A DNA stretch of 64,000 bases. Source: a virus. The translations under genes and the position numbers were made by a program. The notes below the pieces were generated by a model. The model was not told the DNA's origin and ran no database searches. It saw only the letters and a program-made list of their open reading frames with translations. Each line of letters opens with the position of its first letter. The stretch's first letter is position 1. Location of the stretch: IMG/VR virus record IMGVR_UViG_3300049844_000277, positions 36,520 to 100,519 of that record. One strand, 5' to 3'. This document shows positions 7,181-25,300 of this stretch, piece by piece.

Positions 7181-7194
7181 AAATCATTGTACTA

Positions 7195-7238
7195 CGTAAA
7201 GCGAAACGGCCGCCGGTCCATTAGGACCCAGCGGCCGT
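7195..7238 (-). terminator. Candidate rho-independent terminator after the 419-aa gene
   Basis: The minus strand reads ACGGCCGCTGGGTCC-TAAT-GGACCGGCGGCCGT (about 13 GC-rich bp with a small internal loop), followed by TTCGCTTT. Confidence 0.45.
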
Positions 7239-7268
7239 CGTGGGCCCACTAACTGGGAGCGAAGGAAC

Positions 7269-8528
7269 TTAGCTCGCCGAAGCCGCGATTTCTCGAATGC
7301 GACCCAGAAGAGCGCTCTCCTTCTTCTGAGCCTTACCCGATTCGTCCTCGTGCTCAACTTCCTTCTTCATCTTCTTGCCCTTCTCAGACTTCGACTCGTC
7401 GCCCTTCATACCTTCCGCGCAAGCCGCCTCTGCTGCCTTCTTCTCCGCATGCAGATGGTTTAAGTACTCCTGCCTCGCGGTGTGGTCGTACCCAATCATC
7501 CGGCTGATAGCCGCAACCTTCTCGTCATCGCTCATCTCCGGAAGGTACGGACCCACGTCTTCCGCGGTCTTCTTAAAGAGGACCAGGAAAGCATCTTCCT
7601 CTGAAGTCTTGGAAGCTTCAATGACCGAGTTCGTCCCAGCGGGGCTGTTCTTAGGCGCCTTAGGGTGCGGCATCTCAGTGCCGACATGGTGCGTCTGAGG
7701 CTCCGAGATGTTGGCGTTACCCATTCCAACTAGGTACGCCCCCTGAGGACGATTCTTTGCGTCAAGCTTCGCCACTGAATCTACCGAGTCGGTAAGCTTG
7801 TTCTTGTCCTTACCGTCATGTAGTCCAACGAGCTTATTCGCAATCTTCTTAAGCTCGGCATCAAGCCCCGCCGCCTTCGCCGAACCGGCGTCCTTCGCTA
7901 CCGAATTCGTACCAGCAGGCGTATTCGCTGGACCCTTGGGATTCTTGCTCAAGTCACCAACGTGACCCTGCATAGACTCGAGCTCAGTCTTGCCCATGCC
8001 GTGGTGATACATTCCCTCGGGTCGTTGCTTTTGGTCTAACGCAGCAACCTCCCCATTATGTGCAGCTTGCGCGGGGTCATTACCCTTGTCGCCACCGTGC
8101 ATGAGAGCGCCGCCGGATGCTTGCTTAACCTCTTCCGCAGCCTTGGTCATACAGGCAACAGCCTCTTCGCCCGCAAGAGACTCGTAGTCCGCTTGAGCAG
8201 CGGTCTTCGTAACTTCAGCAGCAGCTTTTGCTACCTCGGGGCTGGGAGGAGGAAGCGGCATACCGCCCTCACCCGGAGGACCACCGGCAGCGCCGGCCTG
8301 CTCCATGAGCGCGTGAGCAATTTCCATGAGCTTATTCGCCACAGCGGCAAGCTCTTCCGGCGAATGACCGCCCTCAGGAGAAACTTCCGGCATTGGCGCG
8401 GCTACCGGAGAATCGGCGACAGCATCCGCCGCCTCATCCATGGCTTCCTTTGACGGAAACGCGATGATCCCCTGGCGAACCAGTTCGTGTGCAACTCCCC
8501 GTGCTGCGGCGCGCTTAAAGAGTCCCAT
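7269..8528 (-). CDS. Acidic Ala/Lys-rich protein with an internal ~49-aa duplication (scaffold- or decoration-like by composition only)
   Basis: Residues 163-211 (ALDQKQRPEGMYHHGMG...PAGTNSV) and 254-302 (KLDAKNRPQGAYLVGMG...PAGTNSV) are paralogous. AAGGAG RBS, own candidate promoter upstream and terminator downstream. Confidence 0.6.
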   Translation of the reverse strand: MGLFKRAAARGVAHELVRQGIIAFPSKEAMDEAADAVADSPVAAPMPEVSPEGGHSPEELAAVANKLMEIAHALMEQAGAAGGPPGEGGMPLPPPSPEVAKAAAEVTKTAAQADYESLAGEEAVACMTKAAEEVKQASGGALMHGGDKGNDPAQAAHNGEVAALDQKQRPEGMYHHGMGKTELESMQGHVGDLSKNPKGPANTPAGTNSVAKDAGSAKAAGLDAELKKIANKLVGLHDGKDKNKLTDSVDSVAKLDAKNRPQGAYLVGMGNANISEPQTHHVGTEMPHPKAPKNSPAGTNSVIEASKTSEEDAFLVLFKKTAEDVGPYLPEMSDDEKVAAISRMIGYDHTARQEYLNHLHAEKKAAEAACAEGMKGDESKSEKGKKMKKEVEHEDESGKAQKKESALLGRIREIAASAS

Positions 8529-8562
8529 GAAAGTTTGCTCCTTTTACTTTTACTTTGGCCGG

Positions 8563-8591
8563 AGTGTAGGCCAATGGTTGAGATTTAACAA
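8563..8591 (-). promoter_or_regulatory. Candidate sigma-70-like promoter for the 419-aa gene
   Basis: The minus strand reads TTGTTA, a 17-nt spacer, then TACACT, about 35 nt upstream of the AAGGAG RBS. The host consensus is unknown, so this is weak. Confidence 0.25.
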
Positions 8592-8633
8592 TCAATGTAG
8601 TCGGTCGGCGCCGCTACGTACAACTTAGGAGAA

Positions 8634-9083
8634 TCACCCGCCTGAAACAACTTCAGGCTTTGTATCGAACTTGCGCCCCAGTTCGCGCCCAAGAGTTCCT
8701 AACAACATACCACCGCCAAGCTGTCCCGCAAATCCGCCCAAAGGAGCCCCTAACAGAGACCCTGTTAAATTTCCAATAGCTTGTCCTACTACTTCTCCGC
8801 GATATTCAGACGGTGTCGCCTTAGTTTGTAGTGCTGTAAACACCAAAGGAAGCGTAAGAGTTCGCGAAAGATCTCCGCCTGTACGCGGTAAACCTTGCGT
8901 GTATAATCCTGTCTCTGGGTGAAAAAGTGTGCCGTGGTATATTTGCTTTGCGGCCTCTATCGGTCTTCCAATCGCTGAAATGCGTGCCGCCGTAAGAAAA
9001 TCACGAAACGCTCCCGCGCACTTAGTAGCCTCGAAATCTCGTAGTGCGTTTGACGCGCCTGCTATATACGCCCAGTCACGCAT
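8634..9083 (-). CDS. Hypothetical protein with C-terminal glycine-zipper segment
   Basis: The C-terminus reads GQAIGNLTGSLLGAPLGGFAGQLGGGMLLGTLG (GxxxG repeats). The gene starts 2 nt after the beta' C-half stop. Confidence 0.5.
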   Translation of the reverse strand: MRDWAYIAGASNALRDFEATKCAGAFRDFLTAARISAIGRPIEAAKQIYHGTLFHPETGLYTQGLPRTGGDLSRTLTLPLVFTALQTKATPSEYRGEVVGQAIGNLTGSLLGAPLGGFAGQLGGGMLLGTLGRELGRKFDTKPEVVSGG

Positions 9084-9085
9084 AA

Positions 9086-10885
9086 TTAGTAACGCCCTTC
9101 CGGACCCATCCCAAATTCAGCCCCATAAGCATAGGCGGGTACCGGATGCGTACTGTGTAAATCAGACGCAGCGCCGGTTCGTGCCCCCTGCAGAAGGGAA
9201 TCCTTTAGATATCGGTGAGCCAAGCGCGCCATCCAGTCAGGATGTAGCAGTGGATTACGTGCCATCGGACGCATCAAAAATTCTACCCGAGGTAATGTAG
9301 TGGCGACAGATACTTCCGAAATTTTATGCTCATTCAATTTCTGTATAACTGATGGTGTTAACGGAGTTCCGGCGGTGAAGTGAAGAACTTCTTTACCGAG
9401 TACACCACCCTCCGCCTGCTTCAACGGAACAGATTTACTGTGCCGTGCTGCGGCATCTCTATACGTTGAGTAAGGAATAACCTCGCCCTTTACCAACGTA
9501 GGATGCTCATCAGTATGCTCGAGAACTTTGACGTGGTTGAGGTCCGCGCGGGCAACCAACTCAAGGTGCCGCTTGTCGACATTGAGTCCTTGTCCATGAT
9601 AGATGTCGTGCAATGTGTCCACGAGGTACTGTCGTCCGACACCAAAGCCCTTGTGATGAATGAGCTCGTCTGGTTTCGGAATTCCTTCTGATAAGACATC
9701 CCCCGCCTCTACTTTCTGTCCCACATGAACTAAGATTTTTAAGTTTGGTCCGGCGTAATGTTGTAAAGCATCAACATGCACGTATGTTCCACCGTGCGGA
9801 GCTGGGATTATTTTTGTAATAGTACCTGCGTGCTCTGCTAGCGGTGCTTTATTAATGAAGGTCTGGGGGATTTCCAAAAGCTGACGGATACCAGACATCC
9901 CCTCTAACTTGGGGGATGTACCTTTGAGTAACCGCATACCGTGCTTAGCGCCGAGCGCCATTTGAGTCAACGGTTCGGAGATAGACTGGGCGGCACGGAC
10001 TCCGACGTTAACACCGATAGCGTGCGGACGTCCTCGCTCATCTAGACCCTGGCACTTACGACAGACGCCATCCTTGGTGACGCAGGTCATTGGTGAACGC
10101 ACGTACACTGTACTGACCTTTGCCTGAAGCTTAGACGCCACTTCTTTTGTAACTAAATCATTCCGATGAAATCCAGCCTGGTCTCGAGATAAATAGCGGT
10201 CAACAATATTTCCATCGGAACTATTCATTGCGAGACCGTTATCAGTTCCGCAATCGTCCTGGGTAATAACCAGCGGATACATATTGTTGGTCATCACCTT
10301 AGACATATCGCCAGGCTCTGCGATGGCCGTATAGGTTTGTACGATGTTATGTCGCGCTTCGTTTCCTGCGGCCCAATGGTCAGCAGCGGACAACCCTTCG
10401 GCGTAGGACTTACTGATTAGCCAGGGATTTATCTCCCCTTTGCTTGTCGTAGTCGCAACCGGGGACGCAATGGTTTTCATCAGCTGCGGAATATTGCCGC
10501 GCGCACCCGACAATGCCATCGAGGTCATAGAACCTGGATGCTTTTTGGTGTGCTCAAGCATCTTCTTTTGTACATCTAAAATAATCTTCTCTTTGGCGTC
10601 TCTATTGTCCGCGTTTTTAATTGCGGCGACAGCGGGCTGCATGATGCTGTCGCGTTCTTTGTACTCCGGCGTAATGTCATCCAACCCTACAGAGACACCT
10701 TCAAGCGTAGAGATGTCGTCCCCTAAGGTTTTTAGCTTAGAGACAATTTCTACGTATTCGGCAGGATCTTCCTTGGCCAAGTCCAACATTTTCTGTTGGA
10801 ACTCTTTTTTATTTAGTGTGCCCGTAATGTGATGCTTCCCGGGCAGCAGGCTATTGACCAGAAACCTACCTAACGGCTGAGCCAT
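9086..10885 (-). CDS. rpoC: DNA-directed RNA polymerase beta' subunit, C-terminal half
   Basis: Motifs colinear with bacterial beta': GVSVGLDDI, SGARGNIPQLMKT, GLSAADHWAAGNEARHNIVQTYTAIAEPGDMSKV (bridge-helix region), GVNVGVRAAQSISEPLTQMALGAKHG (trigger-loop region). It continues where the 2836-aa ORF stops. Confidence 0.85.
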   Translation of the reverse strand: MAQPLGRFLVNSLLPGKHHITGTLNKKEFQQKMLDLAKEDPAEYVEIVSKLKTLGDDISTLEGVSVGLDDITPEYKERDSIMQPAVAAIKNADNRDAKEKIILDVQKKMLEHTKKHPGSMTSMALSGARGNIPQLMKTIASPVATTTSKGEINPWLISKSYAEGLSAADHWAAGNEARHNIVQTYTAIAEPGDMSKVMTNNMYPLVITQDDCGTDNGLAMNSSDGNIVDRYLSRDQAGFHRNDLVTKEVASKLQAKVSTVYVRSPMTCVTKDGVCRKCQGLDERGRPHAIGVNVGVRAAQSISEPLTQMALGAKHGMRLLKGTSPKLEGMSGIRQLLEIPQTFINKAPLAEHAGTITKIIPAPHGGTYVHVDALQHYAGPNLKILVHVGQKVEAGDVLSEGIPKPDELIHHKGFGVGRQYLVDTLHDIYHGQGLNVDKRHLELVARADLNHVKVLEHTDEHPTLVKGEVIPYSTYRDAAARHSKSVPLKQAEGGVLGKEVLHFTAGTPLTPSVIQKLNEHKISEVSVATTLPRVEFLMRPMARNPLLHPDWMARLAHRYLKDSLLQGARTGAASDLHSTHPVPAYAYGAEFGMGPEGRY

Positions 10886-10891
10886 GGGAAT

Positions 10892-11308
10892 CTATCTCGC
10901 CCCGTATGGGTCATTAGGAGGCGGAGGTTGTTGAGGTTGAGACGGTGTCATGGCCTGCTGTATGCCCATCATAGCTAGGGGAATAGACGCTTGAATCGCC
11001 ATATCCCGCCCAAAACTTTTTAAACCTGATTTCCAACCACCTGGCTCTTGGGCTGGCGTTGCGGGGACCTCAGGTGTCTTTGGTACAGTGTCCGCAGACG
11101 TCACTGCCGGATTGGCGGTACCACCAAAAATAGGCGGCTTGCCTGCTGGCTGCTGTACCGGCGCTGCTGGCGATGTCTTCGGCGTAACAGGTTTGCCCTT
11201 CTGACCCTTCGCGAAGCGCAGCATCTGAACGGGCGCAGGCGCAGCCGTTTTCGTAAACGTCATCCACGCATCAGTAGTTCCCACAGAATAAAAGATATCG
11301 GCAATCAT
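10892..11308 (-). CDS. Proline-rich hypothetical protein
   Basis: ORF of 138 aa that is Pro/Ala-rich throughout. No motif recognised. Confidence 0.4.
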   Translation of the reverse strand: MIADIFYSVGTTDAWMTFTKTAAPAPVQMLRFAKGQKGKPVTPKTSPAAPVQQPAGKPPIFGGTANPAVTSADTVPKTPEVPATPAQEPGGWKSGLKSFGRDMAIQASIPLAMMGIQQAMTPSQPQQPPPPNDPYGAR

Positions 11309-11664
11309 ATCGCAGCTCCGTCCCGACCAATGCCGGAGTAATCATACGTAGGCGAGCCGCCGCTCCAAGGACTTGATACTCCGCCCCATCGTACGGGGTT
11401 CCCAAAACGCTCGCGACGTTTATCACGCTCAGGGGAAATCCCCGGGTCCATGTCCGTAAGATGCTTAGCTAACCGCTCCGCGGCTACGTTCATATCCCCG
11501 TGCGGAATAGCATGCTGCATGGCATGAGCGGCGGTTCTCACGCCGAAATCTTCTTCTGCGCGAATTCTACCTTCAGCGTAAGCTAAATTCGTCATACGAA
11601 AACCTAGGCTACTCTCGCCCACTACGCAATCGATTAGGTGTAACAGCGTTCTCTTTCCAACCAA
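11305..11664 (-). CDS. Hypothetical protein (start uncertain)
   Basis: The track ORF starts at TTG. An internal ATG at 11595 (MTNLAYAEG...) is an alternative. A ~52-codon GTG ORF (from 11767) in another frame overlaps the 5' end. Confidence 0.35.
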   Translation of the reverse strand: MVGKRTLLHLIDCVVGESSLGFRMTNLAYAEGRIRAEEDFGVRTAAHAMQHAIPHGDMNVAAERLAKHLTDMDPGISPERDKRRERFGNPVRWGGVSSPWSGGSPTYDYSGIGRDGAAI

Positions 11665-11750: not shown

Positions 11751-12380
11751 TTAAGTACCGGCTCCACGGGAACCTCCTTCACAGAACATCATTCGCCGTA
11801 GGTCATCAGCATGCTGCTGGTCAGTAAGGACCATTTGCTCCAGCATGACCTTAAGCGACAAATTATCTCCGGCCATGTCTGACAGATGTCGTAACTCTTC
11901 AATCAATTGCTTCTCAGTTTGTAGAAGAGTCATGAAAATCTGGTGGAGGTCACTCATGTTCGGGATGACACCTACCTTAGGAATAGGTTCTCCGCCTAAC
12001 GCCGTAATCTTCATTGCGAGATGGTAGGCGTCCATCCGCTCTTCTTTGATGTGCTCTTTAAAGTGGTCGTAGATAACATCTCTAAAGTGCGCACGAATAC
12101 GATCGCCATAATTCATATACATGAAGATGATGGTATATTTGTAGCGCAGCAACTTATTACACTGAGCCACTACCTTATCCTGGGCAACCGCGAAGAATCC
12201 TTCCTCGGCCGATACAGCAAGAGGATGAGCACCAGCAGATGCTGTGGCAAGCGGAGGCATGGCGAACATCTCCTCCGTGTGCGGGGATGACTCCATTGTG
12301 TCCGCCATTGGACTGCTAGGAACTGGAAGACTCGAGCCACTCTCAGCCATGGAAGTACCCACTTTGTAGCGCTGCGTCAT
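11751..12380 (-). CDS. Dps/ferritin-like four-helix-bundle protein with ~70-aa N-terminal extension
   Basis: ...YMNYGDRIRAHFRDVIYDHFKEHIKEERMDAYHLAMKITALGGEPIP... and ...LLQTEKQLIEELRHLSDMAGDNLSLKVMLEQMVLTDQQHADDL... follow the Dps pattern (F..lH..f.e....d.iAERi.aLGG.P ... gD..t...l). Confidence 0.55.
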   Translation of the reverse strand: MTQRYKVGTSMAESGSSLPVPSSPMADTMESSPHTEEMFAMPPLATASAGAHPLAVSAEEGFFAVAQDKVVAQCNKLLRYKYTIIFMYMNYGDRIRAHFRDVIYDHFKEHIKEERMDAYHLAMKITALGGEPIPKVGVIPNMSDLHQIFMTLLQTEKQLIEELRHLSDMAGDNLSLKVMLEQMVLTDQQHADDLRRMMFCEGGSRGAGT

Positions 12381-15300
12381 GTACCCACCTCAACTCGAGT
12401 ATTGAGCGTAATCTCCCCGCGCTTATAGGCGGCGAGAGCTTCTTCTCTATTTTTGAAATGGCGTACTTTATCGTTCGCGGAACTCTCGGCTTTGGACGCC
12501 AAATGTACCCCAAGCATAGCTTCCATTCGTGGCGCTACCATCAAGCTATCTTTTTCACGGTCCGAGAATAGAAGGTTTGAGAGAGTCATCCCCTTCACTT
12601 CATCTATCGCGGGCTTCAGTACGGGAACGTGGATTTGGAATGTGTCCCAAACTACGAGGCCGTCGTTGACCGCGAAAATTTGTGTGTCAGGAACAATAAG
12701 GTCATAGACGGTTTCTTTTCTTAATACCTCGACCGACTCTACTAGATCCCAGGTAATTCCAACGTTCTCAACGATCCTTGCCCAAGCATCGACATCTGGT
12801 GTTTTGGCCGTCCGGAAAAAATGCAACATACGCCGAGCGTTTTGCCTCGTAACGTATGGAGCCTCTTTTCGTTTAGATCGTAGCGTAGCCAATGATGCGC
12901 AGAACGAACTATCTTCCGCGCACGGACCAGTACGGCTGGAGGCGAGGGTCATTAGATTTTTAGGAACAGGAACAATATCCACCTGATCCACAAGTTCATC
13001 AGCTTCTAGGAGGTTCAAAGCCTCCAAAGATTTAGAGTTGTTCCAAATTCCTCTACGAAGCCAGGACACGTTACGCTGGAGGTCTACGGTACTAATAGGT
13101 ATCGTATAAGCTACAGCTTTTTGGAGACGTCCCTCCTTCGGATATGCTTCGCTCACAGAACACCGGACGCCGATAGTTTGTAACAAAAAACGTAATGAAG
13201 CTGCTAACGCAGCAGACGACGTGTGAAGGGCGGCCATCACTTGAAGTTTTGCCTTACCGGCGCTGACAGTGAGTGTACCGTCACCGTTCAACATTCCGAT
13301 GAGCACACCCCACCGAGCCTCCTCAGACCAGTCCCCAAACGCTGGCACGCGTTTCGAGAGACAAGAGCGTCCGGGTACCCTCTCATCTAAGTAACAAGTC
13401 TTGAACAGCTCAACGCACTTCTGCGCACCACTAAAGTGGTCTTTGATACTTTGTCCTGTTATTCCGTTAGATGCGTCGTGTACCTCACGATACGTATTTC
13501 GCTTAATGAGCTTACCCTCAAACGCATTCACCGCGGCAGCAAAGCGTTCACGGTGCACGTCACTAACTTTCGTGTACCCGAAATAATGATCGGTTTCACC
13601 CAGTAAGAAACCGTCGGACAAGAATGCGCCGACCATCCATCCAAACTCAAAATCCCCCTGTGACCCCGTTAACGGTAAATGCCGCACAACCGGAGCTAAC
13701 TTTCCAACGGAATCCGAGGGCGCTGTTGCTTCGATCTGACCTGTTTCATGGTTATAAATACACAACGACTCATTCGTCGACGCCGTAACGCTTAAACCAC
13801 GACGCATTTCTACTTTCGCCACTTCGCATCCGTCTTCAATCGTAAGTCCTGTCACCGGGGACATTACTGATTTACTTGCGGAGTGGTCGTAAGAAAGAAC
13901 GCGAAAACCCTCCGGAACGGCGTAACTGCGAGCACCATTCTTGTCGATACTATAGGGCTCCTCAGCGTGTGGAATCTCTTGAAGCTCCGCTTCCACCAGC
14001 GCCTGTACCGCTGAGGTCCAACAAACACGAGTCTCTGCCGCGAATTTCATGGCTGTCTCCTTGGCTTCATCGCCAAGGAGCGCTTTACAAGCCGCACCTT
14101 CTGCTGTCAACACAACTTTCGTCGAACCCAAGAAACAGTTTCCATCGTAATCCGCATTGAAGCCAAGCTCTGCGAACGGATTTACGCGAATCGTCTTCCC
14201 CGCAACAGGGACGGCGTGAGCGCCAATAAACCCGTACCGGTGGAGAGTCGGAGCGCGATTCACCATCACCGGACGCTCCTTAATCTCCGCCATCAACGCG
14301 TCGTGCGCTGCCGGATGTTTCTTTTCCAACATCTCTTTCGCTTGAATGGCTCCGAAGCCGCGACGGATAAGGCGTGAGATAATAAACTTCCCGTACATGC
14401 CCCAAAGCATGTCTATCGGAATACCTATCTCATCCATGCTCAGAGAGCCGTCTGGAGCTATGGTTCCGCGGCCGGAGATATCTTGCTGCCGCTTCATTAT
14501 TCGTTTTTGGAAAAAGGAACTGTTCCCCGATACGGAAGGTTTACCGTTACGGCGAACAACTACAGTACCATTAGGGACTGTCACACAATACACGGTTCCT
14601 TTGTACGGGTACGCCTCGGTAAAAGAGCCCGACTCAATGGTGACATCAGAAAACCCCCGCACAGAAAAAAGATAATGCGGGAGATGGTGATCCTTAACTG
14701 GCGGACAAATTCCTCTAAAAATAACTTGGTAACCTATTTTTGCAGCGAGATGCTGTAGGTCATCAATTAATTGTAAACTAGCGGTACCGGCGTGAGCACT
14801 CAGCGGTTTACGCCGATAATGGGTTTTCGGGTTTTTCACGTTCTTCGCTAACGAAGGGTGAAGGGTTCCATCTCCACGCAGATATCCGCGCAATAATCCC
14901 TCTAACATAGCAGAAGGCCACGCTAAAATATCTGAAGATAAGTGTTTACTCTCGCACCCACGCCCGCAATGATGCGTTAACCAATCCGCCAGTGAGCGTA
15001 ACCTAATAGTCCACCAGATTACCTGGTATCCATCTTTACGCGTATATGTTTTGCGTACAAAGGGAATATCCAATTTTTTAAAGCACAAATCCACCGCGCG
15101 AACGTGTGGAGACGTTGCGGCTTGACACAAAGAAACCTGGGTTCCTGTTGTGGAAATCCAACCTTCCGCAATCCACCAACCTACAAACTCCGCAAAGGCC
15201 AAAGGATCTGGAGTAAATGTTCCTACTAAATTAGCCGTACGCCGTTTTTTGTTATCCGTAGAAACTTCACACGTATCTCCCGCGAAAACCAACTCCGGAA

Positions 15301-18300
15301 AAGTACCCTCCCACTCCTCAGCGCTAACCATTACCCTCCGGCGGTCCGTGCCTATAAAAGTATCCGCGCGTACCTTTTCCCACGGAGTCCAGACATAGAG
15401 CGCCTTACCGTTACTTACGCGCTTACGGCGATACGAGACTACATGTTCGTGGTTAGGTGTTACACATAAATCAAGTTCACGGCTGCGCGTATGTATCAGA
15501 TCTCCGTCGAACGGCATGGATACTAACGCGGTCGGCTTCTGCCATTCAAATTCCCGGGTGTCTAAGTTAACCGTAGCGACACGAGTTTTTCCGGTGTACT
15601 TAGAAAAACGAACCCACCCTTTTTCTGTAAGAATATCTGTTTGATCATCGTAACATTTTGGCGTAGTTTTCCCGGTAATATGCTCGAGAAATCCCTTTAC
15701 GTTTCTCTTTTGGAGTTTGGGGTTATCTGATTCGTGCGTACCAATCACGGCGCCTACCGCGTGAAACAAGTTCTGACGAAGCTTCGCTTGTTCATCCGGC
15801 GGAAGAATTGGAGATTCAATTTGCTTCCGTAATGACTGATTATGAAGGATAGCGCTTTGGTACAGGTAGTTCGAATCACCTACTACGAGCTCAGAGCCAC
15901 TCTTCCCCGGAAGAATGGGTCGCATTATTGGAGGAAGAACAGGCAACTTGGATAGGACGTACGCATCTCCCGGCTTGAGCTCCTGCCGATTCAGCGCCTC
16001 AAGGAACTTCAACTGCTTTACTGCGTCATCTAGCTTCGTACCGGAGAGCGACTTAATAGAGTTACGGAGCTCCGCGATACGCGCCTTAACGTCGATAGCG
16101 TTAAGCTTTTTCTTTACCGCAGCGCCACCATTCGTATGGTGATACTGGTCAAAATCTTTCGCGGTCATCCCCAGCAAGCGACGGGCAGGGTCGGCGAATA
16201 CAGGATTTACAACGGGCTCGGCGAGCTCAATGTGGCTCCACCGTGTTCCAGTGGTACCGCCAGTAACCGCGGGGTCAAACAATCCCCCACGTTCAGCGGC
16301 CAAATCTTTAGCGCGTACTAACTTCTCATTTTGTACTTCGCCAGATGACATCCGTAGAATGTCTTTATCGGTAAGCGGAGAGAGCGTGCTGATACTTCCA
16401 CGCGAATCAACTTTGACCCCTGCGCCATGCAGCATACCGATGAACTTGTCATAAACGAACGACGACTTGAGTGGAGGGAGAGGCAGTCCCAGCTGAATCG
16501 CCCGCCAGAACTCATCGTTCTTCTGGCTCTTAATAGCCGCCGTCTCTCGAAGCACGTTCCGCGCATTATGTGCAACGAGGGCATTGAACTCCATTTTACC
16601 GACGGCTTTCGCGCCTTCGTCACCGCCCTTAATTGGCTGCTGATTAACGTCGTACGCACCCGTACCGCGCGCGGCGTAGTTGGTCTCCGTGGTCTTAAAC
16701 AAGCGAAGTACGTATTGCGGCCCAACCAGGATTCCCGGAATCTTTTTACCCGACACAGGGTCTATCAGCGTTTCCTTGTCCTTGACCTTGTGCTCCTTCA
16801 GTAAATCCTTTGCCCACTGTACGTTGTCACGCCCTGAAAAGTTTTCAACGACAATAGGTTTACCGATTTTCTTGGCAACCTTAGCGACACACGTCTCTAG
16901 TATTTGCGACGGATTGATTCGGGAAATTACGCCAGCCGAGGTATACAAAACCTCAATCGGCTTACCCGTCTCATCTTGAAGCATCTTGTGATCGGGAACA
17001 ATAAGGGAAACAACGCCCTTGTTTCCGTGGCGTCCTGTGTTTCCGCACCATACTGATTTACCATTTCTGCGAACATACAAAACATGTCCAGGAACAGTTA
17101 CACAGTAAACTGGTGATTTGTACGAATCTACAAAACATTCCACCTGACCCTTCTGTCGTTTGATATGTCCATGATTCACAGTAGGTGTTAATTTCGAATT
17201 AATAATTCGTACCTGCCAATAATCACGACACCAAAAATCTTTACCTTTGATTGTTTGATACCCTTCAGCTTTCGCTAACGACACATTAGCAGCTTTACCA
17301 ATATGTAGTGCGAGACGCTGAACATCATCCGCCAAACGTTTGGATGTTGTTTTGTAGCATATCGGTTGGCCATTTTTAGTATGACCGTCACCCCACATCA
17401 ACCAGTTGAATAGCGTCTCTTGATCCGCTCGAGACCAAGCGAACACCTCAAGCGGGATAAATTTCTCGTAAGACTTACCGAACTGTTTAAAGTACTGCCA
17501 ATATTGCTTGGAATGAATACGAACCTTATCACCTGTGTCCGTGAATAAAATCCCTTCCTCACGAAGAAACTTTTCTAACTGTTTTCGATTTGGCTGATTA
17601 ATTTGCGTAATCTCTATGCCGTAAGTACCGGATTCTTCAATCGTAATGAGATTACCTTCAGATAAAAACGCACCGAGAAGAGCGGCTAAGGTTTTAGTCG
17701 GAAGCGCTTTATCATCTAAAACACGTAAACCCCGGCCCCCTTGTCCCGCGCGCACAGTTATCGAGTCAAATACAAACGACTCAGGAGAGTGCCCCACCCA
17801 AATCCCATCCTTCTTATAACTGACCCTTTTTCCTGCGATTTCATACGCCGGTAAAAGTTGGAAAGATTTCTCGTTGCGCGGTTGAACGTACATATGATGT
17901 CCGTCGGTCACAAACAAATCTACCTGTTGTGATTCGATGCGGTACATCCGTCCGCCTTCTGGATACGAATGAATTGCGTCGGGCTCTAGGTACTCGATAT
18001 TTTCGCCATTCTGTAACGTACAAATCTTATCCGTAATACGTACATCCGCTATCGGTTTCCACCCTTCCCACGTGAGAACCTCAGTCTCTGCATCATAACA
18101 GAGCTTGTCTCCGACGCGCATCGGCTCACGGGTCTTAACCGTTACAACGACACGCTTGTCCGTCACATAAACATCCATGACTTCACCTTCGAAGTCGTGG
18201 TCCCACGTACGAACAAGTTCCCGATACGGCGTAACTAACGTCTTCTTTAGGTTACCGAGAAGCGCATCAGACGCCGAAAGTTTACCTCGTGTGACTCCAG

Positions 18301-20887
18301 CGATGAGTATGTCGTGAGGCATAACCTTCATGCCCTTCTTCACGACACCATTGGGGTCAAGCTTACGATACTGCTCTGCGGTATACTTCGACCCGTAGTA
18401 CTGCTGATGGATATCCCTGCCAACCTTGGAGTCGCGATCTACTTCAACAACTTCCTTGTACATATGCTCTGACGTTAACTTCTCGGCGGCGCCAGAGGAG
18501 ATAACGACGGCATCGTTGGAGTTCATTCCGTAATACGGAACGTACCCTACCGTCATATTCGTACCGAGAGCGAAGGAACCGTTGCGGGTAAAATTAGACT
18601 CCGCGAGCGGCTGATCCGCTTCTACCTTATCACCAGGCTTCACCAGAATGTCGTGATGAAGGTGTGTCTTAGATGCGAACGGAAAATTATTCTCGTATGG
18701 AACCCGAATCAAATCTTTCTCAGCAGCTACCTTTTCCCGATTACGCTCGGAGAGGTAGTCCTCTTTAAACTCATCCCAGGTATACTCATCCATGGAACCG
18801 TAGCCCCAAGGAGGACCGTGCTTCTCGTAAGCGCTTTTAGCGGCCTCTTTGGAATCGAAGCCAAGCATGCACTTGTCTTCGTCGTGAGACCCATCCTTCT
18901 TGCGCTGATGTACGACGTAAACATTATCGAAAGAACCATCTTCCTTCAGATAAACGTCGACCGTTTCACCGTCGTCGCCGACGGTCTTAGGAATGTGTCC
19001 GTAGGCCACGGACATCTTCTTTTCCCACTTCTCTCCTTCGGCGTTAGTGCCGGTACGAATATCTCCCGGTTCAAGCTCAATCTTAACGAGCACACCTTGA
19101 ACAGTCTTTTGACGCTTGACCGCCCCGCCTCGTTTCTCGAAAGCGCTCTTCTCGCTTAAGAAATCTTCAGCGTGCTTCTTTCCGCTAGGGTCGATGTAGA
19201 TGTATTGCCCATCAACCTTCACTACTTTGCCCGCTACAGGTGCCGTAGGAAGAACCAGCCCCGCGAGCTCCTTCTCCCAGCTTGAATGCTCAACACCCTT
19301 CTCAGTCAACTTATTGGCGGCTGATTGTACAAGAGGTGCTTCGCGATGAACGAGAGGAAGGGCTTGTGTTTGAACCTTACCACCCATGATGGCACGGTTC
19401 CCCTGCATCGACTCAAGGAACGGGACAAGGTTAGTTGCCGGAGAATACAACTGAGCCACGTCGTACAACTGGTGAGTCACCTTTGCCGCTGGTACGTGCT
19501 CCAACTGCCCTTTGTTCATTGCGGTGACCATTCCCGTAAGCTTTTGCTTAGGGAACGCCACGACCGCCTCGGACATTTGAGCCGCAGACAGCATCTCATA
19601 CTTACCGGACTTAATGTTCTTAGCTGCGGTGTAGAGATTTCCCGTAGCATCCCGGTGCGCCATCATCGCCGTGCGAATATCAATACCAGCGCGGAAGGAC
19701 TCAGACGTACGAACGGGGTCCAGTATCCCTAGATGACTCGAATGAATAGTACGCGCTTCAGCGGGAATCGCGCGCTCATTCGGAATACCTCCTTCGCCGA
19801 GAGATGTAACACGCACAGCGTGGTCGATGGCCTCCATCGGGTTGATGTGCGTGGGAATCGAGCTCAGTTGTGAACCCGTAAGAAAACTTCGGATGCCGGG
19901 CGAAAAGGGCGACGAAGGAAGAATCGCACGGAGTTCAGTCTTATGTGTTGCGCGACCCTTTACCTTATTTGCCAGGGCACGTGCATCCAGCGTTATACGT
20001 TCCTTGATAAAATCGTCTACCGAATGATACGTCTTGAAACGTAAAGCGTCACGATCATCAGTATCCGCATTATCCCGGTACACCTGTAATAGCCGCTTCG
20101 ACGCAACGAGTAGTGCCTGCGGCGTAACCGATGAAAAAGCGTGCCCCAAGGTTTGTTGGTTAACCTCGGGATCCATAGACGTAACAGCGTAAGCTGCTCG
20201 AATAGCATCAAGCTGTGTCTCAGGATTAGTCGCAGCACGTTTAGCCGGATGCACTACTTTCTCGTAAAGCTTATTCAAATGCTTATCGTGCTTACCTTCG
20301 AAAGCCGCCTCATTTTGATGAGCGACATCCGAGCCCCAATGAGTAGAAATATCAGCGTGCGGAACGCCTAATTTTCGAAGTACGGGGTAAAGCGGAATAG
20401 ATGTCGTCCCATACTCGATGTATGGATGTCCTTGGGCAGGGTCTAACGAAAGTCGAAAATTGGTTCCCTTCGACAAGTTAAAGGCGGCCTCTAGTTCCTC
20501 ATTTCCACGTCGCCGCGTATAGACGCCAGGCTTGAGCCGAAGTTGATTTGATACGTTGTACTCGTTACCGTCCAAAATAAAAGTATGCCGTCCTGTGAAA
20601 TAAGGAAGACTCAATAACGTAAAGTTCTTAACTTTCTCAACTTCTTTACCGGAAGCATCACGTAGTGTGACGGTTCCTTTTATCGGCTCAGAAAGAGAAC
20701 CACCGCTCAATAGCGCGTGCTTTTGATCGTTTGGGCCAAAGTCCTTTTCATGGACCTTCAGGTCACTGACCTCAATACTCTTATCCCGCAATGTCAGTGG
20801 AAAAGCGTTTCGCAACGCATCGAGCGCCTTTGCACGAATTTGAACTCGACGGGACTCGGCATCGGTAAGCACGGGAGTGAGCGACAT
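12377..20887 (-). CDS. rpoBC: DNA-directed RNA polymerase beta subunit fused to the N-terminal half of beta', interrupted by three inteins
   Basis: Beta motifs: FILDGNEYNVSNQLRLKPGVY, GEGGIPNERAIPAEARTIHSSHLGILDP, GNRAIMGGKVQTQALPL, VGDKL|TGRHGNKGVVS, GKMEFNALVAHNA. In the same frame follow beta' motifs: RWSHIELAEPVVNPVF, LPVLPPIMRPI, VNRAPTLHRYG, FNADYDGN|TFQIHVPV. Removing the three inteins (354+378+498 aa) leaves about 1606 aa. Confidence 0.9.
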   Translation of the reverse strand: MSLTPVLTDAESRRVQIRAKALDALRNAFPLTLRDKSIEVSDLKVHEKDFGPNDQKHALLSGGSLSEPIKGTVTLRDASGKEVEKVKNFTLLSLPYFTGRHTFILDGNEYNVSNQLRLKPGVYTRRRGNEELEAAFNLSKGTNFRLSLDPAQGHPYIEYGTTSIPLYPVLRKLGVPHADISTHWGSDVAHQNEAAFEGKHDKHLNKLYEKVVHPAKRAATNPETQLDAIRAAYAVTSMDPEVNQQTLGHAFSSVTPQALLVASKRLLQVYRDNADTDDRDALRFKTYHSVDDFIKERITLDARALANKVKGRATHKTELRAILPSSPFSPGIRSFLTGSQLSSIPTHINPMEAIDHAVRVTSLGEGGIPNERAIPAEARTIHSSHLGILDPVRTSESFRAGIDIRTAMMAHRDATGNLYTAAKNIKSGKYEMLSAAQMSEAVVAFPKQKLTGMVTAMNKGQLEHVPAAKVTHQLYDVAQLYSPATNLVPFLESMQGNRAIMGGKVQTQALPLVHREAPLVQSAANKLTEKGVEHSSWEKELAGLVLPTAPVAGKVVKVDGQYIYIDPSGKKHAEDFLSEKSAFEKRGGAVKRQKTVQGVLVKIELEPGDIRTGTNAEGEKWEKKMSVAYGHIPKTVGDDGETVDVYLKEDGSFDNVYVVHQRKKDGSHDEDKCMLGFDSKEAAKSAYEKHGPPWGYGSMDEYTWDEFKEDYLSERNREKVAAEKDLIRVPYENNFPFASKTHLHHDILVKPGDKVEADQPLAESNFTRNGSFALGTNMTVGYVPYYGMNSNDAVVISSGAAEKLTSEHMYKEVVEVDRDSKVGRDIHQQYYGSKYTAEQYRKLDPNGVVKKGMKVMPHDILIAGVTRGKLSASDALLGNLKKTLVTPYRELVRTWDHDFEGEVMDVYVTDKRVVVTVKTREPMRVGDKLCYDAETEVLTWEGWKPIADVRITDKICTLQNGENIEYLEPDAIHSYPEGGRMYRIESQQVDLFVTDGHHMYVQPRNEKSFQLLPAYEIAGKRVSYKKDGIWVGHSPESFVFDSITVRAGQGGRGLRVLDDKALPTKTLAALLGAFLSEGNLITIEESGTYGIEITQINQPNRKQLEKFLREEGILFTDTGDKVRIHSKQYWQYFKQFGKSYEKFIPLEVFAWSRADQETLFNWLMWGDGHTKNGQPICYKTTSKRLADDVQRLALHIGKAANVSLAKAEGYQTIKGKDFWCRDYWQVRIINSKLTPTVNHGHIKRQKGQVECFVDSYKSPVYCVTVPGHVLYVRRNGKSVWCGNTGRHGNKGVVSLIVPDHKMLQDETGKPIEVLYTSAGVISRINPSQILETCVAKVAKKIGKPIVVENFSGRDNVQWAKDLLKEHKVKDKETLIDPVSGKKIPGILVGPQYVLRLFKTTETNYAARGTGAYDVNQQPIKGGDEGAKAVGKMEFNALVAHNARNVLRETAAIKSQKNDEFWRAIQLGLPLPPLKSSFVYDKFIGMLHGAGVKVDSRGSISTLSPLTDKDILRMSSGEVQNEKLVRAKDLAAERGGLFDPAVTGGTTGTRWSHIELAEPVVNPVFADPARRLLGMTAKDFDQYHHTNGGAAVKKKLNAIDVKARIAELRNSIKSLSGTKLDDAVKQLKFLEALNRQELKPGDAYVLSKLPVLPPIMRPILPGKSGSELVVGDSNYLYQSAILHNQSLRKQIESPILPPDEQAKLRQNLFHAVGAVIGTHESDNPKLQKRNVKGFLEHITGKTTPKCYDDQTDILTEKGWVRFSKYTGKTRVATVNLDTREFEWQKPTALVSMPFDGDLIHTRSRELDLCVTPNHEHVVSYRRKRVSNGKALYVWTPWEKVRADTFIGTDRRRVMVSAEEWEGTFPELVFAGDTCEVSTDNKKRRTANLVGTFTPDPLAFAEFVGWWIAEGWISTTGTQVSLCQAATSPHVRAVDLCFKKLDIPFVRKTYTRKDGYQVIWWTIRLRSLADWLTHHCGRGCESKHLSSDILAWPSAMLEGLLRGYLRGDGTLHPSLAKNVKNPKTHYRRKPLSAHAGTASLQLIDDLQHLAAKIGYQVIFRGICPPVKDHHLPHYLFSVRGFSDVTIESGSFTEAYPYKGTVYCVTVPNGTVVVRRNGKPSVSGNSSFFQKRIMKRQQDISGRGTIAPDGSLSMDEIGIPIDMLWGMYGKFIISRLIRRGFGAIQAKEMLEKKHPAAHDALMAEIKERPVMVNRAPTLHRYGFIGAHAVPVAGKTIRVNPFAELGFNADYDGNCFLGSTKVVLTAEGAACKALLGDEAKETAMKFAAETRVCWTSAVQALVEAELQEIPHAEEPYSIDKNGARSYAVPEGFRVLSYDHSASKSVMSPVTGLTIEDGCEVAKVEMRRGLSVTASTNESLCIYNHETGQIEATAPSDSVGKLAPVVRHLPLTGSQGDFEFGWMVGAFLSDGFLLGETDHYFGYTKVSDVHRERFAAAVNAFEGKLIKRNTYREVHDASNGITGQSIKDHFSGAQKCVELFKTCYLDERVPGRSCLSKRVPAFGDWSEEARWGVLIGMLNGDGTLTVSAGKAKLQVMAALHTSSAALAASLRFLLQTIGVRCSVSEAYPKEGRLQKAVAYTIPISTVDLQRNVSWLRRGIWNNSKSLEALNLLEADELVDQVDIVPVPKNLMTLASSRTGPCAEDSSFCASLATLRSKRKEAPYVTRQNARRMLHFFRTAKTPDVDAWARIVENVGITWDLVESVEVLRKETVYDLIVPDTQIFAVNDGLVVWDTFQIHVPVLKPAIDEVKGMTLSNLLFSDREKDSLMVAPRMEAMLGVHLASKAESSANDKVRHFKNREEALAAYKRGEITLNTRVEVGT
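12644..14137 (-). mobile_element. Intein 3 (498 aa, LAGLIDADG type) inside the catalytic NADFDGD-type motif of beta'
   Basis: Junctions are FNADYDGN|CFLGSTKVVLTAEG... and ...VYDLIVPDTQIFAVNDGLVVWD|TFQIHVPV. Dodecapeptide motifs are MVGAFLSDGF and LIGMLNGDGT. The C-terminus is atypical (Trp-Asp instead of His-Asn). Confidence 0.75.
14522..15655 (-). mobile_element. Intein 2 (378 aa, LAGLIDADG type) in beta' N-half
   Basis: Junctions are ITGKTTPK|CYDDQTDILTEKGW... and ...VVVRRNGKPSVSGN|SSFFQKRIMKR. The site corresponds to the bacterial LLGKRVDYSGRS region. Dodecapeptide motifs are FVGWWIAEGW and LRGYLRGDGT. Confidence 0.8.
17039..18100 (-). mobile_element. Intein 1 (354 aa, LAGLIDADG homing-endonuclease type) in beta, inside the GDK..GRHGNKG motif
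   Basis: Junctions are VGDKL|CYDAETEVLTWEGW... and ...LYVRRNGKSVWCGN|TGRHGNKG. Dodecapeptide motifs are LLGAFLSEGN and WLMWGDGH. Confidence 0.85.
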
Positions 20888-22362: not shown

Positions 22363-25300
22363 TTATACAGGCTGATTTTGTTGCGCCATTTGCGCCTTCG
22401 CCTGCTGTCCTTGTTGGTTCTGAAGATCTTCCAGGCGTTGAATGACAACCGCATGCATCACAGCGTCTTCCTTACTTAAGCTATCCAACTGTGAACGCCT
22501 AGAACCAACATCCAGCCCCATGAGCTGCTGCACTATCTGGTCAGCCTGCGCGATGACCGCCTGCTGGTCGTAGTTGAGCCCAGGAGTACCTTGAGCCTGT
22601 AGCTGAACCTGCTGGGACAAGTTATTCTGTAGTTTTCGTAGCTCATTCTGGACGCGCTGATTGTGCCGCGCCTCATCAAGAGTTTCTTGTAGACGCTTCT
22701 CTCGTTCTGCGTCCAAATCAATGTCGAGTCGCTCTAGTATGGTAGTCATTGAGACGTACGAGGGACCCGCTTGCCCGGTAGCCATGCTGAGCAGTAATTG
22801 TTTAGACTCAGTGTCATCGACCATCTTCAAAGGCGTAAGTTTCGCCTCTATCTTCTCCCAGCCAAGATACCGGGACATCTGGTCGCTGTACCACTGTAGT
22901 AGGTCATTCATATCATCCGCGTGCCCTTGCGTTTGATTCTGAATGAGCCGGAGAGTTGCCTCCATGCCTGCTTTAGTTAGTCCACCGTAGAGGAACTCCT
23001 GCGGAATACCTAACGCAGCCATAATGCTCTTCTCAGCTTCTTGAAGCTCACCGAGCGTTAACATCGCCCGTCCATCGCCACCAAGATTGGATACACCAAG
23101 AGCTACTGGTGCCATCATTATGTGTAAGGGGTCACGTCGCCAGCGACGAATATTTTGTTTCATTTCATCTTGCCAACGCGCAAGAGAAATCATTTGCGTA
23201 AAATCTTGCTGTCCGTTTTGTGCGGGATGCAAGATACGCATTGGCACGACGTGCTCCAGCGCGATCGAATTTTTAGTAGCCCCACCCGCGATACAAAACG
23301 TGGAATCCTCCGCGATCTTGAAGTCAATGTATTGTTCCTCTTCCGACTCCTCTACCACGCTCACTCTCGCCGCAAAATAATCTTTCCAGAAAAAGCCACT
23401 CTTGCCGATGGTAATCTCTTCCGCATCCTCCCAATTCCATAGCGCGTAAAGCCGCTCTTGGGACGCACCGCTAACCCGTACGTGGTAACTCGGTCCGTTT
23501 GGGGTAATAACACGCCCATCAGCAAGCGCGTGAATCGGGGTAATGTGCTCACGAATCGTCGCAATACATCCTACGTGAAGGAGCATACGGTAAACATCAT
23601 ACGCAAGGCCCGCACTGGAGGTGGCGAGAGTATCTTGCCCTTCCCGCGTGTGACCATCCGCCTCCCAGAGACCTTTCAAGAATGCGAGCTTTACAGAATC
23701 CGGCGCATGAAATACTTCCGAAGGAACGCGCTTAACGCGCGCGGTTCCCGGAACCATGCCCTTGATGAGAGCCTTCACAATCACATCACACAAGGTAACC
23801 ATGCTACAGTTACCTCTCTGATTGTATCCACCGCACTCCAAGCCAAACTCTCGCCGAATTGCTTCCCGGAGGGGCTCTTCCGTCTTACTGCCCATCGCAA
23901 TCATAACGGTACGCTGGTTACAGGAACCATTTCCAACGTAATGCCCGAGGATATACGCGAAGTCCTCTGTCATCGGGCGCGTCGCGGGGAGGCGTTTTGG
24001 AACGGACCCTTCTTTCAGCTTCCTACGCGCAATCTTCCCAGGGACTCCCTTCACATGCTCACCGGCGCTCTCCGCCTCAAACGCCTGCGCGGAGGGTAAT
24101 GACATCGCGCTGTAAACGTAATTCTCGGTGTTCGCGAAACCGGTGTACTTAGCAACATCTACCTGCTGCGGCTCCGACGGAATTGTCCGGGGGTAGAGGA
24201 TATAATCACCCTTCTCGAACTGTTCCGCGGGACACATCACCTCTTCGTACAAATGCGGATTCTGAAGAATCTCCGACGACGTCTGCTTGTCTTTCGTATC
24301 CGACCGACGTGCGTCGCTTGTCCGTCGAAGGGTAAGGATGGGATGGTGCGGGGAAAATACCCCGCTGAGATGCCGAAGCCCCGAAAGCGTAATACGGCAT
24401 CCGATTTCATCATCCTTCGCATCCCGATACCACTTCTGCTCGACTGGACGCCACCGCCCGAGGTGTGTTCTCACCAAGTCGCCAACACGTACATCATCCG
24501 CGGGCACGAGACCGGTAGACGTCTCAATGAGTGTATCGAGACTGACGCACTCGTTCGCCTTCCTTAGCGTCATGGTGTAGAGGAAGAGCTTGATTGTCGA
24601 CGCAAGCGGAGGAAATCCCCACTGCTGGTCAATACCCGAAGGACTTGGAACCTTGATATGAAAAAGAGCGTCCTTCTCAAAACGAAACGTCTTGTTGTCT
24701 CGAATGTTTTCCAAGAACTCCATAGGCATCGAATTAATAAGATGCTTTGACCCCGATTTAACTTGGTCCTTAACGTCCTGCGGGATGTTATAGTAGTATA
24801 CAGATTGTCCCGTAATCGGATTGTAATCTATATCCATTAGCTTGGGATCCCACCGAATAATATGGACCCGGCTAGCAGCTAGAATCTTACGGTCAACGAC
24901 TGTACCACGCACATCTCGCTTGCAATGCAGGCAGTGGTAGGTGAAAGCCAGCGATTTCAGCTCAAACTTGTAATCAGTGTGCTGAATAGCAACGAGTTGC
25001 TGACAACTAGGACACTTCAGACTACGAACGAACGGCTTATAAATTGATGTAAAATGATTGCCATATATGTGCTTATCGAGCGACGCCATGAGAAGCGCAC
25101 TCTTAATCTTCAAAGTTTTTTCAAAAAGACGGCGATAGTTGCGCCGGAGTGCTTCATTCGATGTTCCGTACTCGAGGTCAGTTACGACGAGCTCTCCAAA
25201 TTTACGCAGAGCCGCGTAAACATGTGCACTATTATACATCAAATATTCGCACCATTTAAAGAGATCTTTTAGCTTTCTTGGTACAAAACCCGTTAGGAAG

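Follow-up and report, generated by a model that had tools for sequence, protein, structure and literature searches.

We analyzed a window of 64,000 nucleotides, positions 36,520 to 100,519 of the IMG/VR virus record IMGVR_UViG_3300049844_000277, in which one long open reading frame (ORF) encodes a phage RNA polymerase and holds three inserts, numbered here as inteins 1 to 3 along the polypeptide (Table 1). The first part of the ORF is RNA polymerase beta (Rpb2_3 and Rpb2_6 in Pfam, rpoB in NCBIfam) and its last part is the N-terminal portion of beta′ (Rpb1_1 and Rpb1_2 in Pfam, rpoC in NCBIfam). NCBIfam models for fused beta/beta′ match it as well, and it stops ∼90 amino acids past the Mg-binding loop. 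A gene of its own encodes the C-terminal part of beta′ and occupies the equivalent position in a syntenic 196-kb metagenomic contig (L003); its product, 32% identical to gp216 of Salmonella phage Arash (E = 3e-50), is the partner subunit of the spliced 1606-amino-acid product of the ORF. An earlier note on this DNA had described three LAGLIDADG inteins in a single RNA polymerase polypeptide. Three genuine LAGLIDADG inteins do share one polypeptide, but the description is imprecise in that the C-terminal part of beta′ lies apart from it.

The closest cultured relatives of the polymerase are those of phage Arash and of Vibrio phages D69, D181 and D148, at 36–38% identity. Arash gp206 aligns with ∼90% of the extein at 36% identity by tblastn and 38% by MAFFT, and a megablast search of the polymerase gene against the INPHARED phages gave zero matches. 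We consider it probable that three self-splicing LAGLIDADG inteins have colonised this gene at conserved motifs, by homing and splicing.

Table 1. Features of the window, numbered from its first nucleotide (aa, amino acids; the arrow marks the splice point)
Feature	Position	Strand	Details
Precursor RNA polymerase ORF	12377..20887	-	2836 codons, uninterrupted; beta fused to N-terminal part of beta′
Intein 1	17039..18100, aa 930-1283	-	354 aa; in beta at GDKL↓TGRHGNKG
Intein 2	14522..15655, aa 1745-2122	-	378 aa; in beta′ at GKTTPK↓SSFFQK
Intein 3	12644..14137, aa 2251-2748	-	498 aa; in beta′ Mg-binding loop, NADYDG(N)↓TFQIHVP
Asn codon AAC, -1 of intein 3	14138..14140	-	Place of third Asp in catalytic DxDGD triad; GAC in L003
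C-terminal beta′ gene (Rpb1 domain 5), separate	9086..10885	-	599 aa; Pfam RNA_pol_Rpb1_5, E = 7.6e-19
InPase domain (PF18823, inorganic-pyrophosphatase-like)	18761..19120, aa 590-709	-	Within beta extein; Pfam E = 1.6e-32
Portal-like gene intein	23269-24549, inside ORF 22363-25374	-	427 aa; LAGLIDADG and Hint signatures; CVSLDT...GGATKN↓S
DNA polymerase A mini-intein	36109-36522, inside gene 34168-37527	+	138 aa; no endonuclease; CVAGETVL...HGFVNKN↓S

Anatomy, folds and intein-free alleles

All three inserts lie exactly where the earlier note had placed them, and its account of their anatomy holds: together they make up 1230 of the 2836 codons, leaving an extein of 1606 amino acids, and each begins with Cys, carries two dodecapeptide motifs and is followed by Thr or Ser (Thr, Ser and Thr at the +1 position of inteins 1, 2 and 3, respectively). 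The dodecapeptides are LAALLGAFLSEGN and LFNWLMWGDGH in intein 1, FAEFVGWWIAEGW and LLRGYLRGDGT in intein 2, and FGWMVGAFLSDGF and WGVLIGMLNGDGT in intein 3, and in every case both motifs retain the acidic residue. Pfam LAGLIDADG_3 matches intein 1 at E = 9.5e-9, intein 2 at E = 1.3e-4 and intein 3 at E = 4e-3, and Pfam Intein_splicing matches intein 3 only, at 26.2 bits, under its curated cut-off of 35.8. The GC content at third codon positions (GC3) is 0.40 in intein 1 and 0.43 in intein 2, versus 0.53–0.60 in the exteins. The intein 2 site presumably corresponds to KGKQGR↓FRQN of the Escherichia coli enzyme, upstream of the SGR motif.

The splicing residues set inteins 1 and 2 apart from intein 3. 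Block B is TDGH in intein 1 and TPNH in intein 2, block F is VYCVTVP in both, with Cys at position 4, and both end in Gly-Asn; TxxH is invariant across the family that these two inteins form, and Cys1 and the +1 nucleophile are kept in all same-site inteins. By these residues, inteins 1 and 2 read as ordinary class-1 inteins (Cys1, TxxH, C-terminal Asn and Ser or Thr at +1) in which the penultimate His has become Gly. Intein 3 has TNES, without His, as its block B equivalent, an assignment inferred from the pattern and from AlphaFold2 secondary structure rather than from structural superposition; its block F is VYDL, with Asp at position 4, and it ends in Trp-Asp. Of the C-terminal His-Asn pair, inteins 1 and 2 therefore keep Asn without His and intein 3 has neither. 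The Gly-Asn and Trp-Asp ends both have functional precedents (PMC4031507) and do not exclude class-1 membership. A class 3 mechanism is ruled out, since class 3 inteins lack the N-terminal nucleophile, depend instead on Cys at block F position 4 and bear a Trp-Cys-Thr signature, and Cys1 is present in all three.

The same sites are empty in related phages, where the earlier note had suggested that intein-free alleles be sought. Arash gp206 (1525 amino acids) has the same fusion of beta with the N-terminal part of beta′ and zero inserts, and reads VGDKV↓TGLHGNKG, GPK↓NGFFQSK and AADYDGD↓ALS across the three sites. The alignment is gapless over each site in Arash gp206, in Vibrio phage D181 and in 41 of 121 close metagenomic relatives. 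The polymerase of contig L003 (protein P0008) is likewise intein-free, and comparison with it at the DNA level shows that insertion was codon-exact at all three sites. Removal of intein 1 leaves the beta motif GDK..GRHGNKG whole.

Structure prediction points in the same direction. AlphaFold2 models of intein 3 with 20-amino-acid flanks (predicted local distance difference test, pLDDT, 87; predicted template modelling score, pTM, 0.83) and of intein 2 (pLDDT 85.5, pTM 0.86) predict, with high confidence, a Hint domain together with a LAGLIDADG endonuclease. Foldseek matched intein 3 to the TliVMA intein (3e-18), PI-PfuI (3.6e-18), PI-TkoII and PI-SceI, and intein 2 to the TliVMA intein (1.3e-16), PhoVMA and PI-SceI; both models also matched the homing endonucleases I-DmoI, I-SceI and I-OnuI. 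For intein 1, a Hint fold is suggested by its homology to intein 2 and by the match of the intein 1/2 family profile to solved inteins (TliVMA E = 1.6e-11, PI-PkoII 6.6e-11). With single-sequence phmmer, neither intein 1 nor intein 3 had a significant match among PDB sequences. The possibility, raised in advance, that these were ordinary lineage-specific insertions lacking the Hint fold is not borne out, as both predicted structures are Hint folds.

The asparagine at the Mg-binding loop

The Mg-binding loop of the window reads NADYDG-N↓C...VVW-D↓TFQIHVP, and the beta′ motif is thus encoded as NADYDGN; this Asn(-1) and the Trp-Asp end of intein 3 are details absent from the earlier note. Alleles without an insertion in the Mg loop read D[Y/F]DGD↓[T/A], except for one sequence that lacks the motif. 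Since Ala is tolerated at +1 in these intein-free alleles, Thr or Ser at this position is a requirement of the intein. The -1 column is the sole extein column that separates alleles of the intein 3 type from the others (100% versus 0%).

In the close family, three related types of insertion occupy the Mg-loop site. Type A, found in the window and 8 others, with P0121 and P0122 as further examples, has the N-junction DxDGN↓CF.GST and the C-junction VVWD↓T, and is marked by the T-N-E-S turn without His, the block F VYDL, a penultimate Trp and a last Asp. Type C (17 sequences) has DxDGD↓[S/C] and IV[F/Y]D↓T, and type B (10 sequences) has DxDGD↓x and ILSN↓T, with no nucleophile at position 1. The members of type B (P0010, P0021, P0033, P0056, P0061, P0091, P0102, P0112, P0117 and P0119) have Ala, Glu, Asp, Lys, Phe or Asn at position 1 and neither a block-B His nor a Cys at block F position 4, and they keep Asp(-1), a Ser-Asn end and Thr at +1. 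Type B fits none of the three described intein classes, and one may speculate that its -1 Asp itself activates the junction via an anhydride.

The arrangement seen in the window recurs well beyond these sequences. An exhaustive phmmer search of intein 3 against 1.84 billion cluster representatives returned 567 matches at E <= 1e-3 and 131 at E <= 1e-30, and among the best 150 matches nearly all full-length ones are the same phage polymerase homologues; a tblastn search against the INPHARED phages gave zero matches, and no carrier among cultured phages was found. At each of 109 D.DGN↓C junctions in representatives clustered at 50% identity, the intein ends in Asp followed by Thr or Ser, with Tyr, Trp or Phe next to last in almost every case (97 junctions came from a pattern search, and the remaining 12 sequences are also Asp-Thr). 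In these representatives and the close family taken together, inteins with Ser1 have Asp(-1) in 21 junctions with a confirmed C-terminal end and in 9 without, and Asn(-1) in 0; Cys1 combined with Asp(-1) is confined to 3–4 cases. Counted as pairs of the -1 residue and the last intein residue, which are not phylogenetically independent, there are 70 (Asn, Asp), 25 (Asp, Asp), 10 (Asp, Asn) and 0 (Asn, Asn). The Asn...Asp arrangement also occurs in the mini-intein of P0122, which is without an endonuclease. The Asn↓Cys junction pattern was found at 4 loci in IMG/VR and at 25 loci in 241 million metagenome records.

If the inserts splice as we propose, the 2836-amino-acid precursor would be translated, each intein would fold as a Hint domain, excise itself and join its flanks, and the spliced 1606-amino-acid polypeptide would assemble with the separately encoded C-terminal beta′. 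Intein 3 belongs to a large Mg-loop family whose catalytic residues are unusual, in that Cys1 is combined with a Trp-Asp end and the block-B His is lacking, and Asn(-1) always accompanies it. Due to the strict conservation of Cys1 and of Thr or Ser at +1, its true junctions are most likely Asn↓Cys and Asp↓Thr, and the intein would be freed by cyclisation of its C-terminal Asp, a variant already known, to give ...DYDGN-TFQ.... Inteins that end in Asp or Gln do splice (PMC4031507). The Asn was probably selected since an Asp(-1) beside the Cys1 thioester would give premature N-terminal cleavage; Asp(-1) has this effect in many inteins, and Asn belongs to the slow class (PMC11842431). Such protection is consistent with the covariation of Cys1 with Asn and of Ser1 with Asp. 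The junction peptide predicted for intein 3 is VNPFAELGFNADYDG[N/D]TFQIHVPVLK, the Asn form being 0.984 Da lighter than the Asp form.

Several points weigh against this account. Judged by its residues, intein 3 looks catalytically weak, with no block-B His, block-F His, penultimate His or terminal Asn, and it could be a poor splicer. Canonical splicing predicts DYDGN, which lacks the third Mg-binding Asp, a residue thought essential and present in 85 of 85 scored intein-free alleles. No compensating extein substitution for the lost Asp was found in the polymerase polypeptide, and the candidate explanation by such a substitution in beta or N-terminal beta′ was rejected, as no other extein column distinguishes type A alleles. 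The absent (Asn, Asn) pair is not predicted by simple canonical chemistry. The contiguous pattern NxD[Y/F]DGN-Txx[V/I]HxP is absent both from IMG/VR and from 241 million metagenome records (0 occurrences in each), and its Asp version is found on at least 120 IMG/VR contigs; since the Asn↓Cys junction does occur, Asn exists at this position only beside the Cys of an intein. In addition, both splicing and endonuclease activity are predictions from sequence and modelled structure throughout. The related two-barrel polymerase PolD uses only two of these three Asp residues, and its catalytic loop is an intein site in several species (PMC4996933). By analogy, a two-Asp active site in an RNA polymerase is not unthinkable.

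The alternative that deserves the most attention is that the Asn↓Cys inteins regenerate the catalytic Asp, either through deamidation of the -1 Asn or through excision of Asn-Cys...Trp and joining of Gly to Asp, and we regard it as unlikely, though far from negligible. It would account for an Asn that is never encoded in an uninterrupted gene but only next to an intein Cys1, for the fact that 109 of 109 Asn↓Cys inteins end in Asp and 0 in Asn, and for the rule that at least one of the -1 and last intein residues is always Asp. Excising Asn-Cys...Trp would also restore the exact intein-free sequence DYDGD-TFQIHVP, and the Asn...Asp arrangement persists in P0122, that is, without a homing drive. 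However, the strict conservation of Cys1 and of Thr or Ser at +1 points to the canonical junctions, and the Asn/Asp swap may equally reflect covariation between two active-site residues that interact. When Asn-Thr deamidates spontaneously, it does so slowly and forms mainly isoAsp, and to our knowledge no described chemistry cuts N-terminal to Asn and after Trp, or has Asp as the +1 nucleophile. The alternative boundaries, with Asn-Cys...Trp excised, were for these reasons set aside: Cys1 and Thr or Ser at +1 are strict, and no known chemistry fits. We put forward only tentatively the idea that the Mg-loop family uses an undescribed chemistry that delivers Asp to the triad, in which case an essential metal ligand would be made only by splicing itself.

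Wherever the commonest Mg-loop intein occurs, the third metal ligand is changed from Asp to Asn and the last intein residue is Asp. Either a multisubunit RNA polymerase works with a D-D-N triad, or the intein imposes a catalytic cost outweighed by its selfish drive, or splicing regenerates Asp by new chemistry; one of these must be true, and any of the three answers would be informative to intein chemists and transcription enzymologists alike.

Occupancy across the phage family

A search of 5.8 billion proteins returned 120 metagenomic homologues much closer than the cultured phages, 41–82% identical by best local alignment and 1583–2825 amino acids long. Counting the window, 41 of the 121 close homologues are intein-free; 53 carry a single intein, 24 two and 3 three, these last being the window's polymerase, P0010 and P0091. 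Inteins 1 and 2 are related, as the earlier note had recognised, with homology over their full length at 24% identity (BLASTP E = 5e-17). Their family carries the signature CYDxxTEVLTxxGWK ... YVRRNGKxxWSGN↓S and occupies three sites: GDKL↓[S/T]GRHGNKG, the site of intein 1, in about 50 sequences; DPxRTPE↓S in 19; and GKTTPK↓SSFFQK, the site of intein 2, in 4 (the window, P0010, P0011 and P0030). Mini-inteins of 144–170 amino acids, with the endonuclease absent, occur at the same sites.

In a neighbour-joining tree, each site forms a single clade, with a mean identity of 45–57% within sites and 22–27% between them. Intein 1 is closest to its counterpart at the same site in P0003 (78%), and intein 2 to its same-site counterpart in P0011 (64%). 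Because the clades follow the sites, and these nearest relatives share the site but belong to other phages, movement from one site to another is old. The intragenomic spread that had been proposed for inteins 1 and 2 thus survives as common membership of one family, but not as an event in this genome, which probably acquired each of the two by ordinary same-site homing; the 24% identity and the clean same-site clades led us to reject the idea that intein 2 arose here by recent duplication of intein 1.

In such homing, each endonuclease would cut the intein-free alleles of co-infecting relatives and the intein would be copied in, which would explain why a given site is filled in some family members and empty in others. 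Co-infecting jumbo phages are known to compete by means of homing endonucleases directed at polymerase genes (review, PMC13282480), and by analogy competition of this kind could apply here. The wider polymerase family has 28–39% extein identity to the window, about as Arash does. Crude chaining of BLAST alignments suggests further probable sites near extein residues 500-530, 970-980, 1070 and 1200 and up to four insertions per gene; three or four apparent insertions are seen in P0186, P0185, P0211, P0214, P0201, P0190, P0259 and P0267, which reach 3387 amino acids. This large metagenomic phage family has a probable total of at least eight insertion sites.

Two further inteins lie in the window (Table 1). 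The portal-like protein is 1003 amino acids long, versus 578 in the intein-free L003, where the +1 residue is Ala, and the extein identity between the two is 88%. The mini-intein of DNA polymerase A sits in the family A motif GRLS↓S..NMQNIP and scores 35.8 bits with Pfam Intein_splicing, exactly the cut-off. With five inteins, the window shows a general infestation by mobile elements.

The earlier note had reasoned that an active polymerase needs all three inteins removed, which agrees with the position of each within a catalytic motif, and had gone on to see in this a post-translational gate on phage transcription. That suggestion finds no support, as a third of the close relatives are intein-free and occupancy is mosaic. 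We regard it as highly improbable that three splicing events serve as a regulatory gate or timer, even though the unspliced precursor must be inactive with its sites all in catalytic motifs, and conditional splicing is documented for some inteins, such as that of mycobacterial DnaB (PMC6195587). The 41 of 121 intein-free alleles and the mosaic occupancy are the signature of selfish homing elements, not of a conserved regulator, and the endonuclease motifs are intact. Frequent intein-free alleles together with intact endonuclease motifs therefore argue for selfish homing elements and not for a regulatory device, and the inteins in the portal-like and DNA polymerase genes likewise speak for a general infestation of the genome.

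Timing argues against a gate as well. Arash gp206 has the top spectral count in purified virions by mass spectrometry, and gp216 is also abundant there (PMC10585845). By homology, the window's enzyme is probably packaged in the virion and comes into use as the next infection begins, and its synthesis and use would lie one whole infection cycle apart; late synthesis and carriage to the next cell would leave ample time for splicing.

It is also very doubtful that intein 3 stays unspliced or yields a dead DYDGN enzyme, with the phage RNA polymerase non-functional or dispensable. The loss of all the usual catalytic His residues and of the terminal Asn, and the absence of the third Mg ligand from the coding sequence, would fit such a state. 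Against it, exteins and intein termini remain free of frameshifts across alleles of 41–76% extein identity and also across the 109 representatives clustered at 50% identity, and conservation over such a range implies long-term purifying selection on a working precursor. The Mg-loop motif has only one copy in the window, and Arash has one beta/beta′ gene set in the region examined. That the inserts are lineage-specific domains kept in the mature enzyme is barely credible: the weak single-sequence matches (Intein_splicing under its cut-off, nothing significant by phmmer against PDB) are all that favours it, and it is countered by the confidently predicted Hint and LAGLIDADG folds, by nucleophiles at both junctions, by the abundance of insert-less alleles, and by the difficulty that a domain of 350–500 amino acids could hardly be accommodated inside GDK..GRHGNKG or the Mg loop.

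The InPase domain is not an intein and lacks splice-junction residues; precomputed Pfam annotation finds it in most close relatives, and it is missing from Arash and Vibrio phage D181. By tblastn it also matches proteins annotated as portal or ParB in unrelated phages. Fusion of a pyrophosphatase with an RNA polymerase would be of functional interest. A gene for a ferritin-like protein of 209 amino acids (window 11751-12380, minus strand) has its start 4 nt before the end of the polymerase ORF, an arrangement that is kept in L003 and looks translationally coupled. The polymerase orthologues of Vibrio phages D181 and D148 are each encoded by two ORFs, the gene being broken after the motif NMVPFFNS; in D181 (L002) the break spans 7525-8473 (∼950 bp), between coding sequences 5980-7524 and 8474-11494. 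These breaks hold small ORFs and an annotated free-standing homing endonuclease, and could represent a mobile intron or a fractured gene, that is, another kind of mobile element targeting the same gene.

Comparison with known systems

Inteins 2 and 3 most resemble solved class-1 inteins, namely TliVMA and PhoVMA (7qss, 7qsu, 7qst) and PI-PfuI (1dq3), in which a Hint domain is likewise split by a LAGLIDADG endonuclease, and PI-TkoII/PI-PkoII (2cw7) and PI-SceI (1vde, 1ef0), which have the same two-part architecture. These are the top Foldseek matches of both models (E = 1e-16 to 3e-18) and share Cys1 and a Ser or Thr at +1. The identity is only 10–17%, however, and the host protein and sites differ. 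The solved inteins end in His-Asn, whereas the C-terminus is Gly-Asn in inteins 1 and 2, whose block F has Cys as its fourth residue, and Trp-Asp in intein 3, which has no block-B His.

The inteins of PolD (Pol II of Pyrococcus abyssi and Methanoculleus marisnigri) offer a parallel to intein 3: PolD is a two-barrel relative of RNA polymerase and carries them in its catalytic loop, and they end in a residue other than Asn (Gln) and splice slowly (PMC4031507); Pab PolII (2lcj) is among the Foldseek matches of intein 3. They differ in ending in Gln rather than Asp, in their host enzyme and exact position, and in being archaeal mini-inteins rather than phage elements. A change of the catalytic Asp to Asn at -1 is not described in the sources on them. 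The inteins of RPB2, RPA2 and RPC2 (Goodwin et al. 2006, PMC1635734) are similar in occupying non-allelic, conserved positions near the active site of beta homologues, and some non-allelic ones are related, which points to rare moves to new sites. Unlike the inteins of the window, they occur one per protein, in eukaryotes or eukaryotic viruses, and none lies in the Mg loop of the largest subunit.

Arash gp206/gp216 and their counterparts in Vibrio phages D69, D181 and D148 share the orthologous split architecture near a portal gene; they differ in having no inteins, no InPase domain and a canonical Mg loop, AADYDGD. Proteins with three or more inteins include archaeal replication factor C and cyanobacterial and archaeal ribonucleotide reductases. 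These resemble the window's polymerase in needing several splicings per polypeptide, in other host proteins. In the searchable literature we found no report of three inteins in a multisubunit RNA polymerase or in a phage gene, nothing on inteins with DFDGD/DFDGN or in phage multisubunit RNA polymerases, and no description of a polymerase intein hotspot in phages such as these. Inteins, multi-intein proteins and polymerase active-site inteins are all known, and in this sense the three-intein polymerase is a new example and not a new principle. What the comparison adds is an uncultured family of phages of roughly 180–200 kb whose virion-type multisubunit RNA polymerase is an intein hotspot, together with a Mg-loop intein family that, in its exchange of Asn for Asp, is a new variant.

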